64,000 bases of DNA from Ruminococcus flavefaciens (GTDB lineage Bacteria; Bacillota; Clostridia; Oscillospirales; Ruminococcaceae): positions 1,164,594-1,228,593 of the forward strand of contig JAMPAU010000001.1 in assembly GCA_023667045.1 (NCBI GenBank). Direction: 5' to 3'. The position numbers and the translations under genes were made by a program. Position 1 is the first letter of the stretch. Each line of letters starts with the position of its first letter. Shown in pieces: positions 772 to 26,914 of the stretch. The notes under the pieces were generated by a model, which was not told the DNA's origin, did no database searches, and was given only the letters and a program-made list of their open reading frames with translations.

Positions 772-822
772 TTCACAGCCTTGAAAAAGGTTGAAAATAA
801 TTTTAGAAATGGAGATTTTAAT

Positions 823-3800
823 ATGTCCGTATTCAGAATTTATGCCGAAAAAAAACCGGAATTTGCTGTTGAGGCACAGTCTGTACTCAGCGACGTGAGA
901 ACAGCCCTCAGACTGAATATCAACGGTCTGCGTATCCTCAACAGATACGACGCTGACAAGCTCAGTGAAGAAGATTTCAGAGCCTCTGTAAATACTGTCT
1001 TTTCAGAGCCTGCCGTTGACGTTGTTTACGAAGAACTCCCCGAAATCACTACCGACGACAGAGTTTTTGCCGTTGAGTATCTGCCGGGACAGTTTGACCA
1101 GCGTGCAGACAGCTGTGAACAGTGCATACAGATTCTCAGACAGGGCGAGCGTTGCCGTGTGAGAAATGCACGTGTGTATATTATTTCCGGCAATATCACA
1201 GATGAGGATTTCGACCGTCTCAAGTCCTATATCATAAACCCCGTCGAGAGCCGTGAGGCTTCACTGGAAAAGCCCGAAACTCTCGATACTAACTATGAGA
1301 TTCCCGAAACTGTAAAAACTCTGGACGGTTTCACAAGCCTTGACGATAACAGTCTGCATGATTTCATAAAACAGTATGGTCTTGCTATGGACTTTGATGA
1401 TATTAAATTCTGTCAGAAATATTTCCGTGACGACGAAAAGCGTGACCCCACTATCACTGAAATAAAGATGATTGATACCTACTGGTCTGACCACTGCCGT
1501 CATACTACATTCCTCACAAACGTCAAGGACGTTAAAATAGACGCTCCGTATATCAGAGATACTTATATTGAATATCTCGACGTGCGTGACGAACTCGGTC
1601 GCACCAAAAAGCCTATTACTCTCATGGATTTGGCTACAATCGGTGCAAGAAAACTCAAAGCCGACGGACTTCTTGACGACCTCGATGAGAGCGAGGAAAT
1701 AAATGCCTGTTCCGTTAAAATCAAGGTTGACGTTGACGGACAGCAGGAAGACTGGATTCTCATGTTCAAGAATGAGACACACAACCACCCCACTGAGATT
1801 GAACCATTCGGCGGTGCTGCTACCTGTCTCGGCGGTGCTATCCGTGACCCGCTCTCCGGACGTTCATATGTATATCAAGCTATGCGTGTTACCGGTGCTG
1901 CAAATCCTCTTGTACCCGTTGAGGACACTATCGCCGGAAAACTCCCACAGCGTAAGATAACTGTAGGTGCTGCCAACGGTTACAGCTCATACGGCAACCA
2001 GATTGGACTTGCTACCGGACACGTTGCAGAAGTATATCACCCCGGATATGTTGCAAAGAGAATGGAAATAGGTGCTGTAGTAGGTGCTGCACCTGCTGAA
2101 AATATCCGTCGTGAAAGACCTGCCCCGAATGATATAGTTGTACTGCTCGGCGGTAAGACAGGTCGTGACGGCTGTGGCGGTGCTACTGGTTCTTCAAAGT
2201 CGCATACTCTTGAATCTCTCGAAAATTGCGGTGCTGAAGTTCAGAAAGGCAATCCGCCGGAAGAAAGAAAGTTGCAGAGACTTTTCAGAAATCCGGAAGT
2301 TACAAAGATGATTAAACGCTGTAACGACTTCGGAGCAGGCGGTGTTTCTGTTGCTATCGGCGAACTTACAGACGGTCTTGTTATAAACCTCAATGCCGTG
2401 CCGAAAAAATATGACGGTCTTGACGGCACTGAAATTGCTATCAGTGAATCACAGGAAAGAATGGCTGTAGTTATCGCTCCGGAAGACCTTGAAAAGTTCA
2501 TGGCAGAGGCTAAAAAGGAAAACCTTGAGGCTACTGTAGTTGCTGACGTTGTTGAAGAACCACGCCTTAAAATGAACTGGAACGGTAAGACTATCGTAAA
2601 TCTTTCAAGGGATTTCCTCAATTCAAACGGTGCTGTCAAGTATACTGATATTGTCGTTGAAGAACCTGTCTTTACAGATGACGAGACTTTCACTGACAAT
2701 GCTGAAACATGGACAGAAATAATGTCCGGTCTTAACGTATGCTCACAGAAAGGTCTTATTGAAAAGTTCGATTCAACAATTGGTGCAGGTACTGTGCTTA
2801 TGCCCTTTGGTGGCGTATATCAGATGTCGCCATCACAGGCTATGGCAGGAAAGATTCCGGTACTCAAAGGCGAGACTAATACCTGTTCAATTATGGGCTG
2901 GGGCTATAATCCGGATATATCATCAAGAAGTCCGTATCATGGTGCAATGCTTGCTGTAGTTGAATCAATCGCAAAGGTAGTAGGAGCAGGCGGTTCATAT
3001 AAGCACTGCTGGCTTACTTTCCAGGAGTATTTTGAACGCACTCAGAATGACCCGAAACGCTGGGGAAAACCTCTCTCTGCATTGCTCGGTGCATTCAAGG
3101 CACAGCTTGAAATGGGTTGTGGTTCGATAGGCGGTAAGGATTCAATGTCGGGTACTTTCGAGAATATAGACGTACCGCCCACGCTTGTATCTTTTGCAGT
3201 ATCAACCGCACAGGCTAACAAGGTTGTTTCTACTGAATTTAAGGAAGCCGGAAACGACGTTATCATGATTGTACCGGAATACGACAGAAACGGTCTGCCG
3301 ATATTCGCAAGCCTTAAAAAGTGTTTTGACAAGGTTGAAAGTCTTATATCTTCCGGACGTGCTAATGCCGTATGGACACTTGGTTACGGCGGTGTTGCTG
3401 AGGGTATCGCAAAGATGTGTTTCGGCAATAAGCTCGGTTTTGAGTTCTCCGCACACCTCACACCGTCCGAACTCTATAAAGCCTGCTACGGTGCATTTAT
3501 CGTGGAAGTAATGGGCAATGCTCAGAATGATGAGTTTGTAATAGGCAAGACCATTTCCGACTATAAGATTTATACTGAAAAATACACTGTTAACCTTGAC
3601 AGTCTTCAGAGAGCGTGGGAGGGCAAGCTTGAACCTGTTTTCCCGTGCAGAATAAGAACTACTGACGTTACACCTCAGACTTATTCCCATGAAAATACTG
3701 AAAAGAAGTCCGCATCAATAAAGGTCGCACAGCCTAAGGTGCTTATTCCGGTATTCCCCGGCACTAACTGTGAGTACGATACAGCAAGAGCCTTTGAAAA

Positions 3801-4527
3801 AGCCGGTGCTGTAGCTGAAACTGTAGTTATCAAGAACCTTTCAGCCTCAGACCTCGAAGACAGCATAAACTACTTTGAAAAGGCTGTAAAGGAATCCCAG
3901 ATTATCATGATACCCGGCGGATTCAGCGGTGGTGACGAACCGGAAGGCAGTGGTAAGTTTATTACTGCATTCTTCCGCAACCCGAAAATCAAGGACGCTG
4001 TTCACGAACTCCTCAAAAACCGTGACGGTCTTATGCTTGGTATCTGCAACGGTTTTCAAGCATTAATAAAACTCGGTCTTGTGCCTTTCGGCGAAATAGT
4101 TGACATGACCGACGAATCACCTACACTTACATTCAATACAATAGCACGTCACCAGTCAATGATGGTGAATACAAGAATCGCTTCTAATAAGTCCCCATGG
4201 CTTTACGGCTGTGAGGTGGGAGACATTCACACAGTACCGATTTCGCACGGTGAGGGACGTTTTGTAGCACCTCAGAGCCTTATTCAGAGACTCGCTAATA
4301 ACGGTCAGATTGCTACCCAGTATGTTGACCTTGAGGGCTGTCCTACTATGGATATACGCTACAATCCCAATACCTCAATTGAGGCTATCGAGGGTATTAC
4401 TTCTCCGGACGGTCGTGTACTCGGTAAAATGGGTCACTCCGAGCGTAAGGGCAGTTACATCTGCAAGAACGTTTCCGGAAACAAAGACCAGAAAATATTT
4501 GAGAGCGGTGTAAACTACTTCAAGTAA
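823..4527 (+). CDS. purL: Phosphoribosylformylglycinamidine synthase (large fused PurL with glutaminase domain)
   Basis: WSDHCRH, KNETHNHPTEIEPFGGAATCLGGAIRD, GGFSGGD, GICNGFQ, SHGEG, MGHSER; ATG at 823 after GGAG. Confidence 0.97.
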   Translation: MSVFRIYAEKKPEFAVEAQSVLSDVRTALRLNINGLRILNRYDADKLSEEDFRASVNTVFSEPAVDVVYEELPEITTDDRVFAVEYLPGQFDQRADSCEQCIQILRQGERCRVRNARVYIISGNITDEDFDRLKSYIINPVESREASLEKPETLDTNYEIPETVKTLDGFTSLDDNSLHDFIKQYGLAMDFDDIKFCQKYFRDDEKRDPTITEIKMIDTYWSDHCRHTTFLTNVKDVKIDAPYIRDTYIEYLDVRDELGRTKKPITLMDLATIGARKLKADGLLDDLDESEEINACSVKIKVDVDGQQEDWILMFKNETHNHPTEIEPFGGAATCLGGAIRDPLSGRSYVYQAMRVTGAANPLVPVEDTIAGKLPQRKITVGAANGYSSYGNQIGLATGHVAEVYHPGYVAKRMEIGAVVGAAPAENIRRERPAPNDIVVLLGGKTGRDGCGGATGSSKSHTLESLENCGAEVQKGNPPEERKLQRLFRNPEVTKMIKRCNDFGAGGVSVAIGELTDGLVINLNAVPKKYDGLDGTEIAISESQERMAVVIAPEDLEKFMAEAKKENLEATVVADVVEEPRLKMNWNGKTIVNLSRDFLNSNGAVKYTDIVVEEPVFTDDETFTDNAETWTEIMSGLNVCSQKGLIEKFDSTIGAGTVLMPFGGVYQMSPSQAMAGKIPVLKGETNTCSIMGWGYNPDISSRSPYHGAMLAVVESIAKVVGAGGSYKHCWLTFQEYFERTQNDPKRWGKPLSALLGAFKAQLEMGCGSIGGKDSMSGTFENIDVPPTLVSFAVSTAQANKVVSTEFKEAGNDVIMIVPEYDRNGLPIFASLKKCFDKVESLISSGRANAVWTLGYGGVAEGIAKMCFGNKLGFEFSAHLTPSELYKACYGAFIVEVMGNAQNDEFVIGKTISDYKIYTEKYTVNLDSLQRAWEGKLEPVFPCRIRTTDVTPQTYSHENTEKKSASIKVAQPKVLIPVFPGTNCEYDTARAFEKAGAVAETVVIKNLSASDLEDSINYFEKAVKESQIIMIPGGFSGGDEPEGSGKFITAFFRNPKIKDAVHELLKNRDGLMLGICNGFQALIKLGLVPFGEIVDMTDESPTLTFNTIARHQSMMVNTRIASNKSPWLYGCEVGDIHTVPISHGEGRFVAPQSLIQRLANNGQIATQYVDLEGCPTMDIRYNPNTSIEAIEGITSPDGRVLGKMGHSERKGSYICKNVSGNKDQKIFESGVNYFK

Positions 4528-4534
4528 TATAAAT

Positions 4535-4731
4535 ATATGACGGATTGAAAAATATCCGTCATATCTGTTTAAGGCTATATATAGCTGAAAATATCACTTT
4601 TCGGTGACGGATATGACGGATTTTTACTATTTTTATAACTCCTTAATAAAAGAATATATAATATATATATAAAATAAAAAAACAGAAAAGGTTTATAAAA
4701 AAGGGTCATATCCGTCATATCCGTCACCCGA
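4535..4731. repeat. Iteron-like inverted repeats (TGACGGA units) flanking an AT-rich tract; phage/satellite origin-like
   Basis: Hairpin atatgacgga..tccgtcatat 4535-4564; arm tcggtgacggatatgacggat 4601-4621 inverted to atccgtcatatccgtcacccga 4710-4731; ~90 bp very AT-rich core. Confidence 0.7.
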
Positions 4732-4767
4732 AATAAGCAATGATATAAAAATTTTACCAAAAAATAC

Positions 4768-4796
4768 TTGACAAAGTTGAATATTTATGATATACT
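4768..4796 (+). promoter_or_regulatory. Sigma70 promoter of CRISPR-like leader, copy A (would also drive glgA)
   Basis: TTGACA 4768-4773, 17 bp, TG-extended TATACT 4791-4796; near-identical to promoters at 26426 and 26704. Confidence 0.85.
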
Positions 4797-4835
4797 GTTT
4801 TTATAACAGGGTCTGTTTTAAAGGGGCTTTTTATT

Positions 4836-4893
4836 ATTTTCCCTGCATACGCAGGGGTGACCCTAGTAAAAATTTTCCCCACATAGGCGTGGG
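4836..4893 (+). CRISPR. Type I-E-like repeat, 8-nt remnant spacer and degenerate second repeat (mini-array copy A)
   Basis: ATTTTCCCTGCATACGCAGGGGTGACCC 4836-4863, identical to 26769-26796; then tagtaaaa; then ATTTTCCCCACATAGGCGTGGG hairpin. Confidence 0.75.
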
Positions 4894-4916
4894 AGACACA
4901 TAAGGAGTTGATTGCA

Positions 4917-6371
4917 ATGAACCAAATTCTTTTTGCTGCTTCAGAGTGCGTACCATTTATAAAGACCGGCGGTCTTGCGGACGTTGTGGGCGCTCTTCCG
5001 AAGTACCTCAACAAGAACGATTTCGACGTAAGGGTTATCCTGCCTTACTATACCTGCATTCCTGCAAAATACAGGGATAATTTCAAGTATGTCACACATT
5101 TCTATATGGACTATGGCATGAGAAAGGAAAATGTTCATGTCGGCATTATGGAATACGAATACAGTGGTATCAAATTCTATTTCGTGGACAATGAATACTA
5201 CTTCAAGTGCGATACTCCTTATTCTGCTGATTTGAAGTGGGATATTGAAAGATATACTTTCTTCTGCAAGGCTGTACTCGCTATTCTTCCGGTTATTGGC
5301 TTCCGTCCGGACATCATTCACTGCCACGACTGGCAGGCATCGCTTATTCCGGTGTTCATGCACTCTACCTTTGCAACTAACCCTTTCTACAGCTCAACAA
5401 GAACTATCATGACTATCCACAACCTTAAATTTCAAGGTGTATGGAATATTGATACTTTCAAGTACAATACTGCACTTCCGGACTATATGTTTACTCCAGA
5501 TAAGCTCGAATTTAAAAAGGACGCTAATATGCTTAAGGGCGGTCTTGTTTATGCCGACTACATCACCACTGTAAGCGAAACATACGCTGAGGAAATCAAA
5601 TATCCTTTCTATGGCGAACAGCTTGACGGTCTTCTTCGTGCAAGGTCTGCTTCTCTGCGTGGTATCGTAAACGGCATTGACTACAATGTTTTCGACCCCA
5701 ACAACGACAAGCACATCTACAAGGAATACCATGCAAAGAACTTCAAGAAGAAAAAGGCTGTAAACAAAACTGAACTTCAGAAAGAACTTGGTCTTCCTGT
5801 TGATGAAAATAAGTACATGATAGCTATAATCTCACGTCTTACCGACCAGAAGGGTCTCGACCTCGTAAGCTACGTCATGGAGCGTATCTGCGATGAAAAC
5901 ACCCAGTTTGTCGTAATCGGTACTGGCGACCACAGATATGAAGATATGTTCCGTCACTATCAGTGGAAGTACCCCGACAGAGTTTCAGCTAATATCCTCT
6001 ATTCCGACCCTCTCGCTCACAAACTCTATGCTGCTGCCGACGCTATGCTTATGCCCTCTCTCTTTGAACCGTGCGGACTTACTCAGCTTATCTCCCTCAG
6101 ATATGGTACAGTGCCGATTGTACGTGAAACAGGCGGTCTCAAAGACACTGTAGCACCTTACAATGAATTTGACGGCACAGGCACTGGATTCTCCTTTGCA
6201 AACTACAACGGCGAGGAAATGCTCGGCGTAATCAACTACTCAAAGCACATTTACTTCAATCACCGTGACCAGTGGGACAAAATGGTTTACAGGGGCATGA
6301 CTACCGATTATTCATGGAACAGCTCCGCAAGACAGTATGAAGGTATGTACAACTGGATTATCAACTGGTAA
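4917..6371 (+). CDS. glgA: Glycogen synthase
   Basis: KTGGLADV motif, HCHDWQ, TIHNLKFQG, PSLFEPCGL; ATG 4917 after AAGGAG. Confidence 0.95.
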   Translation: MNQILFAASECVPFIKTGGLADVVGALPKYLNKNDFDVRVILPYYTCIPAKYRDNFKYVTHFYMDYGMRKENVHVGIMEYEYSGIKFYFVDNEYYFKCDTPYSADLKWDIERYTFFCKAVLAILPVIGFRPDIIHCHDWQASLIPVFMHSTFATNPFYSSTRTIMTIHNLKFQGVWNIDTFKYNTALPDYMFTPDKLEFKKDANMLKGGLVYADYITTVSETYAEEIKYPFYGEQLDGLLRARSASLRGIVNGIDYNVFDPNNDKHIYKEYHAKNFKKKKAVNKTELQKELGLPVDENKYMIAIISRLTDQKGLDLVSYVMERICDENTQFVVIGTGDHRYEDMFRHYQWKYPDRVSANILYSDPLAHKLYAAADAMLMPSLFEPCGLTQLISLRYGTVPIVRETGGLKDTVAPYNEFDGTGTGFSFANYNGEEMLGVINYSKHIYFNHRDQWDKMVYRGMTTDYSWNSSARQYEGMYNWIINW

Positions 6372-6456: not shown

Positions 6457-6813
6457 ATGGACAAACAACTTGCAGTACAGATTATTGATATATGCTTTAC
6501 TGATGATGTAAGAAATACTTTTCGTAATGCAATACAAAGAGGTTATGAAAAAAATAGTAAAAAGAGATTGCTGTATTCTGCTATATATTCTTGTATTGAA
6601 AGCGACGAAATAAAAAATTTAGGATTTAATGCAGAATTGGAGCAGTATAAAAGTTCTTATAAAACACATATTTACAATGATAAATTTGTAATTGATGTAT
6701 TTGAAAGTAATCATAACAATAATACAAATTATGACAATAAAAAGACTTTATCTGAAATAAAAATACATATATATGACGAAAATATAAATCTTATTTATGA
6801 GGAAAATTTATAA
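6457..6813 (+). CDS. Hypothetical low-GC protein
   Basis: 118-aa ORF, markedly AT-rich, stop abuts the RBS of the next gene. Confidence 0.55.
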   Translation: MDKQLAVQIIDICFTDDVRNTFRNAIQRGYEKNSKKRLLYSAIYSCIESDEIKNLGFNAELEQYKSSYKTHIYNDKFVIDVFESNHNNNTNYDNKKTLSEIKIHIYDENINLIYEENL

Positions 6814-25074: not shown

Positions 25075-26384
25075 AAAACTACAGTACACAAATGGAAGCC
25101 GGTAAAAAAGGCATTATAACCCCAGAAATGAAAGCGGTTGCAGAAAAAGAGTATATCTCTCCGGAGGAACTCTGCAAACTTGTCGCAAAAGGTGAGGTCT
25201 GCATACCTTGCAACGTAAACCACAAGTCTATATCGCCGGAGGGAATAGGTTCACGCATGAGAACCAAAATAAATGTAAACTTAGGCATTTCCGGCGACTG
25301 CAACAATTACGACAACGAAATGAAAAAAGTTGACATGGCTCTGAAATATGGTGCGGACGCTATCATGGATTTGAGCAATTACGGCAAGACTAATACTTTC
25401 CGCCGACAGCTTATAGAAAAGTCTCCGGCAATGATAGGCACAGTTCCCATGTACGACGCTATCGGCTATCTTGAAAAGGATTTGCTTGAAATAAAGGCGG
25501 AAGATTTCTTGAAAGTAGTAGAGGCTCACGCAAAAGAGGGTGTTGACTTTATGACTATCCATGCAGGTATTAACCGCCGTGCCGTTGAGGCTTTCAGACG
25601 TGACAAGCGTAAGATGAATATTGTATCTCGTGGCGGTTCGTTGCTTTTTGCATGGATGATGATGACAGGCAATGAGAATCCTTTTTATGAATACTATGAT
25701 GACGTGCTTGATATTCTCCGTGAATACGACTGTACAATAAGTCTTGGTGACGCACTCCGTCCGGGCTGTATAGACGATTCAACAGACGCAGGACAGATTT
25801 CAGAGCTTATTGAACTCGGTGCTTTGACTGAACGTGCATGGGCTAAGGACGTACAGGTTATGGTTGAAGGTCCGGGACACATGGCTATGAACGAAATAAC
25901 CGCAAACATGAAGATTCAGAAGCGTATCTGCCACAATGCACCTTTTTATGTTTTAGGACCTCTTGTTACGGACATTGCACCTGGTTACGACCATATAACG
26001 TCCGCTATCGGCGGTGCTATAGCTGCCGCAAGCGGTGCGGACTTCCTCTGTTATGTAACTCCTGCCGAACACCTCCGTCTGCCCGACATAGCCGACGTTA
26101 AAGAGGGCATTATTGCAAGTCGTATAGCTGCCCACGCTGCCGATATTGCTAAGGGCATTCCGCACGCCACAGACCCCGACAACGCTATGGCAGAAGCACG
26201 TCATGCTGTTGACTGGGAAAAAATGTTTGATATTGCGATTGACGGCGACAAGGCACGTGAATATTTTGAAAGCACACCTCCGGCTGACCGCCACACCTGT
26301 TCAATGTGCGGACGAATGTGTGCAGTCCGCACGACAAATGCGATTCTCAACGGCGAGAAAGTCGAATTCTGTACGGAAAAGTAA
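25071..26384 (+). CDS. thiC: Phosphomethylpyrimidine synthase
   Basis: [48 protein letters not shown]-terminal CSMCGRMC. Confidence 0.97.
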
Positions 26385-26414: not shown

Positions 26415-26425
26415 CGTGGTTTCTC

Positions 26426-26454
26426 TTGACAAAGCCGAATATTTATGATATACT
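26426..26454 (+). promoter_or_regulatory. Sigma70 promoter of mini-array copy B
   Basis: TTGACA, 17 bp, TG-extended TATACT. Confidence 0.88.
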
Positions 26455-26491
26455 TCTTTTAGCAAGGATTATTTAAAAGGGTCTTTTTAGT

Positions 26492-26578
26492 ATTTTCTCT
26501 GCATACGCAGGGGTGACCCGATGTGTGCGGTCCGCACAACAATATGATTCTATTTTCCCCGAGTTATCGGGGCTGTCC
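26492..26578 (+). CRISPR. Type I-E-like mini-array B (repeat, 32-nt thiC-matching spacer, degenerate repeat)
   Basis: ATTTTCTCTGCATACGCAGGGGTGACCC 26492-26519; spacer gatgtgtgcggtccgcacaacaatatgattct 26520-26551; ATTTTCCCCGAGTTATCGGGGCTGTCC 26552-26578. Confidence 0.85.
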
Positions 26579-26589
26579 TTGTTACAGTT

Positions 26590-26616
26590 AAGCACTTCTT
26601 CGGAGGTGCTTTTTTT
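26590..26616 (+). terminator. Intrinsic terminator of mini-array B
   Basis: aagcacttcttcggaggtgct followed by a T run; identical copy at ~26868-26894. Confidence 0.85.
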
Positions 26617-26693: not shown

Positions 26694-26703
26694 GTGATTT
26701 CTC

Positions 26704-26732
26704 TTGACAAAGTCGAATATTTATGCTATACT
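26704..26732 (+). promoter_or_regulatory. Sigma70 promoter of mini-array copy C
   Basis: TTGACA 26704-26709, 17 bp, TG-extended TATACT 26727-26732. Confidence 0.88.
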
Positions 26733-26768
26733 GTATTTAAAGCAAGGGCTATTAAAAAGGGTTTTAGT

Positions 26769-26856
26769 ATTTTCCCTGCATACGCAGGGGTGACCCCGTC
26801 GGAGACGAGTTTATGTTTTACCGCAACGAATTTTCCCCGCACACGCAGGGCTGTCC
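26769..26856 (+). CRISPR. Type I-E-like mini-array C (repeat, 33-nt spacer, degenerate repeat)
   Basis: ATTTTCCCTGCATACGCAGGGGTGACCC 26769-26796; spacer cgtcggagacgagtttatgttttaccgcaacga 26797-26829; ATTTTCCCCGCACACGCAGGGCTGTCC 26830-26856. Confidence 0.87.
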
Positions 26857-26914
26857 TTGCTACAGTTAAGCACTTCTTCGGAGGTGCTTTTTTTCGTGTC
26901 GGCATGGATAACCC

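Follow-up and report, generated by a model that had tools for sequence, protein, structure and literature searches.

A type I-E CRISPR-derived cassette upstream of glgA in Ruminococcus flavefaciens and its relatives elsewhere in the genome

Small units of CRISPR origin have known roles in regulating cas genes and as decoys of phages; they are not known as promoters or leaders of housekeeping genes. Hairpins recognized by Cas6 or Csy4 were reportedly engineered into 5′ untranslated regions (UTRs) by Qi and colleagues in 2012 to insulate or control mRNAs. Synthetic 5′ UTRs with hairpins of this kind have been documented as insulators and controllers of mRNAs (Borchardt et al. 2015, PMC4604432). 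Among natural systems, CreR and CreA mini-arrays reside inside CRISPR-cas loci, where the spacer pairs with a cas or toxin promoter beside a protospacer-adjacent motif (PAM) (Shmakov et al. 2023, PMC10120712; bioRxiv 10.1101/2023.03.10.532045). Surveys of mini-arrays have focused on CRISPR-cas loci. The published mini-array pipeline considered repeats 15 to 60 bp apart, and regulation elsewhere in the genome was raised only as a possibility (PMC10120712). Anti-CRISPR RNAs known as Racrs, among which type I-E examples exist, function as small RNAs; they are carried by viruses, proviruses, and plasmids and frequently have acr genes as neighbors (Camara-Wilpert et al. 2023, PMC10651486). Mini-CRISPR arrays borne by viruses target rival viruses (Medvedeva et al. 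2019, PMC6858448). In a full-text literature search, we found no paper describing CRISPR leader-repeat units as promoters or leaders of housekeeping genes. Here, we describe a candidate for such a unit upstream of the glycogen synthase gene glgA, in a stretch of 64,000 nucleotides from Ruminococcus flavefaciens (the window; C24:1164594-1228593 in an assembly of 3.64 Mb and 112 contigs). Positions 4767 to 4899 of the window are a worn-down, single-unit type I-E cassette that sits in place of the native glgA control region; it probably now drives glgA, has its first repeat cut by Cas6e, and plays no guide role.

The glgA cassette is truly CRISPR derived, and its leader is an internally deleted version of genuine type I-E array leaders. 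A complete type I-E operon is encoded on another contig (C45) and consists of cas3, cse1, cse2, cas7, cas5, cas6e (at C45:2975-3610), cas1, and a cas2-DnaQ fusion (typed by Pfam). The genome also holds three genuine arrays of the same repeat family, with 17 repeats at C24:1235021-1236027, at least 12 repeats on C45, and 3 repeats on C40. The nearest of them is about 66 kb from the glgA cassette on the same contig, roughly 6.4 kb beyond the end of the window. Leaders of these arrays begin with a similar promoter, continue with ACAGGGTCT, and end in CTTCTTTTTAGT beside the first repeat. The leader of the glgA cassette has both of these ends and is missing about 65 nt of the middle; the promoter, a GGGTC motif, and the repeat-proximal CTTTTTAGT block are common to the cassette and to the array leaders on C24, C40, and C45. 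Comparison of repeat 1 of the cassette with the array repeat shows 3 differences over 28 positions, two of which make up a compensatory stem change from C-G to U-A. Pairing at the six stem pairs is found in 97% of cells over 25 genomic copies of the repeat, a figure that shared descent may inflate, and the C-G to U-A change is present in five copies.

Closer relatives of the cassette lie within the window itself. A first-pass annotation, made from the DNA letters of the window, had pointed to the same promoter, a similar leader, and an identical 28-nt repeat at 26.4 to 26.9 kb. The promoter does recur there, at 26425 and 26703, with 2 mismatches each and no counterpart in shuffled sequences, and the leader aligns with those of both sister cassettes. 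Identity of the repeat held for one of the two sites (26769-26796), while the other (26492-26519) has 1 mismatch; 0 matches were expected from shuffles. The same annotation was correct that the glgA spacer is only 8 nt long, that the second repeat is a different hairpin, and that the terminator hairpin seen after both thiC sister cassettes is absent here.

A comparison of glgA upstream regions, which had been suggested at the same time, reveals what the cassette displaced. We read 84 related Ruminococcus glgA loci, which came from 80 related species and from four closer metagenomic contigs. Most of these loci have a conserved promoter (TTGACTT-17-TGgTGTATAAT), a UTR of approximately 60 nt with a small CTGC...GCAG hairpin, and the motif AAGGAG, and a few are cut off at a contig end or are divergent upstream. 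Not one of the 84 carries a CRISPR repeat or cassette upstream of glgA. In 24 of the 80 related species, the gene directly upstream of glgA is purL. When 40 relatives were searched, the end of purL and the start of glgA could be aligned, and the 368 bp between them could not. The 3′ end of purL, which can be aligned as far as its stop codon, forms the left border of a rearranged intergenic region made up of a MITE-like repeat (Table 1) and the cassette. In BLAST comparisons with the nearest relative, homology restarts at window position 4901, right after repeat 2. The nearest relatives are close, with GlgA proteins that are 96 to 97% identical and locus DNA that is about 86% identical. Because homology resumes exactly after the second repeat, the cassette has taken the place of the native promoter and 5′ UTR of glgA. 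That replacement leaves glgA without any other recognizable promoter, and the cassette promoter is in fact the only promoter-like site on the + strand within the 800 bp from 4300 to 5100. We found no target-site duplication at the glgA cassette, where 47% of shuffles scored a flank likeness as high, in contrast to the thiC cassette, which gives a clear duplication. Metagenome scans for repeat 2 and for the repeat 1 variant, together with exact look-ups of GlgA and of a neighboring 84-amino-acid protein, all made in search of material from the same species, returned no match. We also considered the 8-nt spacer as a piece of native UTR left in place (AGTAA...), an idea that was dropped since the likeness was by eye only.

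Table 1. Features of the glgA locus and of the related cassettes. Positions are those of the window unless a contig is given.
Feature	Position	Strand	Remarks
purL (FGAR amidotransferase)	781-4527	+	open reading frame; neighbors of orthologous loci carry FGAR-AT_linker/AIRS_C/GATase_5
Repeat like a miniature inverted-repeat transposable element (MITE), ~200 bp	4522-4766	no strand	inverted TGACGGA-rich ends; between purL stop and cassette, outside the CRISPR cassette
Cassette promoter, cTTGACA-17-(TG)ATATACT (TTGACA-17-TATACT)	4767/4768-4796	+	11/12 consensus plus TG extension
Shortened CRISPR leader, 39 nt	4797-4835	+	motifs GGGTC and AAAGGGxCTTTTTAxT; aligns with sister cassettes
Repeat 1, ATTTTCCCTGCATACGCAGGGGTGACCC	4836-4863	+	intact type I-E repeat
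Spacer remnant, TAGTAAAA	4864-4871	+	8 nt; direct sequence reading
Repeat 2, ATTTTCCCCACATAGGCGTGGGAGACAC	4872-4899	+	degenerate terminal repeat; 5 substitutions vs family consensus
glgA ribosome-binding site, AAGGAG	4902-4907	+	2 nt past end of repeat 2
glgA (glycogen synthase)	4917-6371	+	484 amino acids, intact; ATG start; 96-97% identical to named GlgA proteins with PF08323/PF00534
Sister cassette A, downstream of thiC	26425-26600	+	promoter, leader, repeat, 32-nt spacer, terminal repeat, terminator
Sister cassette B	26703-26880	+	same scaffold, different 33-nt spacer; repeat 1 identical to glgA copy
Cassettes on contig of window	C24		3 cassettes: glgA, thiC_A, thiC_B
Cassettes on C35	C35		4 cassettes: 50k, 137k, 140k, 172k
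Cassettes on C57	C57		3 cassettes: 121k, 128k, 130k
Cassettes on C68	C68		2 cassettes: 72k, 80k
Cassette on C79	C79		1 cassette: 90k

Three features have been maintained in the glgA copy: a near-consensus promoter, an intact repeat 1, and an end that is flush with the ribosome-binding site. Promoter replacement is therefore the best-supported account of this locus. Both promoter hexamers are invariant in an alignment of seven cassettes, and no terminator was called between the cassette promoter and glgA. Transcription from this promoter, which is of sigma-70 type and taken to be strong, would be predicted to start near 4803 and to yield a 114-nt leader containing both hairpins. Repeat 1 has a CCCTGC/GCAGGG stem, an ATAC loop, and a 3′ handle of GTGACCC, with a predicted fold of −11.7 kcal/mol. 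Cas6e would bind this repeat and cut at the 3′ base of the stem, between 4856 and 4857; such cutting is probable, and likely if the cas operon is expressed. The cut would release a glgA mRNA that begins with a 5′-OH and a 7- to 8-nt handle, followed by the 8-nt remnant and by the repeat 2 hairpin just ahead of the ribosome-binding site, and a processed 5′ end of this type should be fairly stable. As for the start codon, the list of open reading frames offers a TTG at 4908, and alignment with relatives favors the ATG at 4917.

The second hairpin and the spacer appear to have had a different fate. The fold of repeat 2 is shifted in register by one base and has a 5-bp stem (CCCAC/GTGGG) and a loop of 6 nt, and the first-pass annotation had counted it as a possible second Cas6 hairpin. 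However, among random mutants of the consensus with five substitutions, 28 to 35% fold at least as well, and we rejected selection on the repeat 2 hairpin on that basis. Repeat 2 looks to be decaying. The proposal that glgA is transcribed from a CRISPR cassette is supported in part (CRISPR derivation, replacement of the native region, and presence of cas6e) and falls short for the second hairpin, which bears no sign of selection. A further suggestion, that Cascade controls glgA by way of the cassette, is unlikely given a spacer of 8 nt as opposed to the 33 to 35 nt of genuine array spacers in this genome. Because 8 nt cannot assemble or direct Cascade, the glgA cassette would have no guide function. 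Shortened type I-E spacers are said to be tolerated only to about −12 nt, as Kuznedelov and colleagues reportedly observed in 2016. An 8-mer is also expected to occur by chance around 100 times in 3.6 Mb, which precludes any meaningful target search, and no target was detectable.

Set against described systems, the closest functional analogue of the glgA arrangement is the synthetic 5′ UTR carrying a Csy4 or Cas6 hairpin. In both cases, a hairpin lies between the promoter and the ribosome-binding site, where cleavage would give a defined, promoter-independent 5′ end. The difference is that the arrangement here is natural, stands before seven genes, and involves cleavage that is predicted. Like CreR and CreA, the cassette has a promoter to itself, a repeat of host type, a short stretch resembling a spacer, and a distal repeat that is degenerate, and it derives from an array end or leader unit. 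Unlike those mini-arrays, it is separated from the nearest array by more than 60 kb and does not share a contig with the cas genes, 8 bp lie between its repeats (outside the published spacing of mini-arrays), and it continues into a housekeeping mRNA. Off-target integration by Cas1-Cas2, termed neo-CRISPR and attributed to Nivala and colleagues in 2018, reportedly duplicates a pseudo-repeat around a new spacer. Like that process, the present genome has CRISPR-type units at non-CRISPR sites, and an insertion in rnpB (see below) has the expected flanking duplication of approximately 28 nt. In contrast, bona fide repeats, leader, and promoter are present here, and flank duplication is lacking at glgA.

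Several observations weigh against a cassette that drives glgA and is processed by Cas6e. The start site, the activity of the promoter, and Cas6e cleavage are all inferred from sequence. No terminator was called on the + strand between purL and the cassette, so that read-through from purL is possible. The three positions at which repeat 1 departs from the array repeat may matter to the specificity of Cas6e. In addition, three spacers of the main array (C24:1235021-1236027) match the organism's own assembly perfectly, with flanks of AAA or GAA, which would mean either that interference is off or inhibited or that the assembly mixes cell types. These perfect self-targets hint at possible repression or inhibition of the system, in which case Cas6e might be scarce. 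Last, we found no genome of the same species with which to date the cassette or to reveal polymorphism.

The glgA cassette belongs to a family, and the interest lies in this family and its implications more than in the decayed glgA copy. Altogether, 13 promoter-bearing cassettes occur in ordinary chromosomal contexts (Table 1), and their neighbors include metK, thrE, queD, and genes for a VanY-family protein, an HD-domain protein with an amylase, a GH25 protein, a copper ATPase, and a PBP. Seven of the 13 end 9 to 43 nt ahead of a same-strand start codon equipped with a ribosome-binding site (17 nt for glgA), and four stand alone with terminators. Short spacers are found in two cassettes besides the glgA copy, at 15 and 23 nt. 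Over its whole length, the glgA cassette is closest to the thrE cassette (78%). Searching with a covariance model built on the promoter, leader, and repeat 1 recovered 13 places in the genome, of which 10 are cassettes and 3 are leaders of arrays. When 150 other genomes of the genus were searched with this model, only 7 were matched, and several of the matches are ordinary array leaders. The sister species has about five dispersed units, all at loci other than those occupied here. Of the two cassettes near thiC, cassette B is flanked by a duplicated thiC 3′ end and terminator.

Some cassettes have additional structure. A second class has leaders and trailers that are complementary over about 10 to 20 nt and would enclose repeat-spacer-repeat in a long stem, like a processing stalk (C35:50583-50720, C35:140685-140880, C68:72660-72830, C68:80317-80480, and C79:90700-90850). 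In the thrE cassette (C57:128038-128177), the 15-nt spacer is complementary to the cassette's own leader (TTTTGTGG..AGGGAGG versus CCCTCCACAAAA). The start codon of thrE is CTG in this genome and ATG in relatives.

The full-length spacers of the cassettes correspond to host sequences that are conserved in the genus, not to phage. The 33-nt spacer of the cassette before the HD-domain gene (C35:172012-172164) is the −10 segment of the gene's own native promoter as found in the sister species and in another relative, and the DNA after repeat 2 (TGTCTTTACAAAGGAG) is the sequence that follows the −10 segment in those relatives. The two repeats thus appear to bracket native DNA in place. We worked through homologous recombination, strand-annealing repair, and half- and full-site integration on paper as routes to these junctions, and none fits without coincidence. 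Relatives have a conserved 5′ UTR element upstream of queD, and the spacer of the queD cassette is antisense to it; the element had no Rfam match at E ≤ 0.01, and its likeness to preQ1-I is by eye only. Four cassette spacers have 26 to 29 matches out of 33 at sites 200 to 400 bp away, with mismatches in the seed or flank. The spacer of cassette A (26520-26551) matches the thiC 3′ end of relatives, and the corresponding site in this genome is at 26315-26347; at 32 nt, it is one base shorter than the native thiC segment. The flank of this protospacer, which is near-identical in relatives, is AA-type there and ACG in the organism's own thiC, by way of a codon change from Lys to Arg, which looks like PAM escape. 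For comparison, protospacers of the genuine arrays are flanked by AA(A). Native promoters were replaced at the HD-domain gene, queD, and thrE as well as at glgA, while the GH25 cassette has orthologues that are only about 50% identical, with upstream regions that are not comparable. Collectively, the spacers suggest that the cassettes make, or once made, working CRISPR RNAs (crRNAs) against host alleles. Intact cassettes of the family have spacers copied from adjacent host DNA, and the glgA cassette is a burnt-out one.

The character of these spacers raises the possibility that the glgA copy is what remains of a self-targeting element that installed itself. Under this scenario, an original full-length spacer would have been directed against the native glgA promoter or 5′ UTR, Cascade-Cas3 would have cut chromosomes with the native allele while the replaced allele survived or spread in a gene-drive-like manner, and the spacer would then have decayed to 8 nt. 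Such an origin is compatible with present-day promoter function and Cas6e processing, but as a history of this particular copy, we regard it as possible yet doubtful. It would explain why sister spacers are genus-conserved host sequences and not phage, why those of the HD-domain gene and queD are, respectively, a native −10 segment and the antisense of a native 5′ UTR element, and why the four near matches are spoiled in the seed or flank. The flank of the thiC protospacer, which is AA-type in relatives and ACG here, fits as well, given the AA(A) beside protospacers of the genuine arrays. However, the 8 nt at glgA carry no information on a former target, and neither flank duplication nor another insertion signature was found there. 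Moreover, the flank of the HD-gene spacer in relatives is non-AA, the junctions at that gene are not fully accounted for by any known mechanism, and the perfect self-targets of the main array indicate that interference may be inactive.

Two other explanations would deny the cassette a role in glgA expression or assign it a different one. It could be an inert scar of array rearrangement or off-target integrase activity, with repeats that have no effect and with glgA expressed by read-through from purL or from an unrecognized promoter. Decay of repeat 2, whose hairpin is no better than chance, and truncation of the spacer would be expected of a scar, and no + strand terminator was called after purL. 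The same intergenic region has also received a MITE, so the site tolerates junk, and another CRISPR repeat inside rnpB indicates that repeats scatter in this genome. Yet we find an inert scar unlikely, for the native glgA promoter is entirely gone, the near-consensus promoter has hexamers that are invariant among cassettes otherwise differing by 15 to 25%, and repeat 1 is intact and identical to another copy. Furthermore, the cassette ends flush with a ribosome-binding site, as is the case at six other genes, and this is not expected repeatedly of neutral scars. Alternatively, the cassette could be a host-encoded decoy that, like Racrs, works together with the other cassettes to soak up Cas6e and Cas7, damping type I-E activity to the point that self-targeting spacers are tolerated. 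The cassette has the hallmark of solitary repeat units, a promoter directly ahead of a mimic of the host repeat (PMC10651486), an 8-nt spacer would yield an aberrantly short complex, and 13 cassettes with near-consensus promoters could outcompete three arrays in a genome that is viable despite three perfect self-targeting spacers with PAM-like flanks. The idea of a Racr-like RNA had also been raised in the first-pass annotation, but it does not agree with the setting. Racrs are mobile-element passengers, whereas the glgA unit is chromosomal, not on a virus, plasmid, or provirus, and lies between purL and glgA in synteny conserved with relatives, with no mobile-element genes or acr-like neighbors. 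The repeat and promoter were unmatched in IMG/VR, and among GenBank phages the only hit was a trivial AT-rich match of 39 nt. In addition, the transcript would be fused to mRNA and run on into glgA instead of ending as a small RNA, and most sister cassettes retain full-length spacers and proper crRNA geometry, which is indicative of guide rather than decoy function. We therefore consider a decoy highly improbable.

Expression of glgA and six other genes from CRISPR leaders, with trimming by Cas6e, would, if real, represent a natural counterpart of the synthetic Cas6 insulator and would tie metabolism to expression of the immune system. On a broader scale, we tentatively propose that CRISPR leader-repeat units of this Ruminococcus lineage could be self-spreading promoter modules. 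Such modules would install at genes, take a spacer from native or neighboring DNA (which in one instance seems to have been enclosed where it lay), force the target to be lost or mutated through the type I-E system of the host, and end as a promoter with a Cas6e-processed 5′ UTR. Were this correct, a CRISPR nuclease would now mature at least seven ordinary genes and perhaps RNase P RNA, with glgA as a burnt-out copy. Because sister spacers represent host alleles, and the organism's own genome has escape changes where these spacers match, the family suggests that CRISPR self-targeting can drive replacement of promoters and alleles within bacterial chromosomes, a process that is much discussed but for which natural examples are scarce. 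Sister cassettes resemble virus-borne mini-arrays in having a single spacer, no cas genes, and a spacer that matches a gene variant while the element's own copy is mismatched; they differ in that carrier and targets alike belong to the host chromosome, and in the glgA copy the spacer has been lost. The family also provides a concrete set of sequences that bears on off-target integrase activity.

Other features of the locus can be described briefly. The gene upstream of the cassette had been considered as nifJ, which was rejected since the domains of orthologous neighbors are those of purL. A reading of 4535-4731 as iterons or a replication origin was likewise rejected, because the region is a repeat that occurs about 20 times in the genome. 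These copies of the MITE-like element are 72 to 88% identical, several lie within 2 kb of CRISPR-type units, and the element is absent from the purL-glgA site of relatives. Downstream, an open reading frame of 118 amino acids without obvious relatives (6457-6813) separates glgA from a HAD-family gene, and the closest related contigs have no gene at that location. A glgA paralogue that is 42% identical is encoded on another contig.

Within the CRISPR system itself, the region upstream of cas3 (C45:10262-10900) is a tandem triplication of units of about 230 to 270 bp, each with a promoter like those of CRISPR leaders (cTTGACAAAtT...ATATATGTTAyAyT). One of the perfect self-targets of the main array (C24:637632-637665) falls in an open reading frame of 506 amino acids beside a gene for a Zot-like ATPase, possibly part of an integrated element resembling a filamentous phage. 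The two others are on contig C20 (34 kb).

A CRISPR repeat also resides in the RNase P RNA gene. In rnpB (C68:47324-47727; Rfam class A, 254.8 bits), there is an insertion of approximately 57 nt at the tip of P12 that relatives do not have. It consists of one CRISPR repeat, ACTTTCCCCGCATACGTGGGGGTGACCC, between two diverged copies, each about 28 nt long, of the native P12 hairpin. The insertion looks like the product of off-target integrase activity with target-site duplication, and through the inserted repeat, RNase P RNA might be a substrate of Cas6e.

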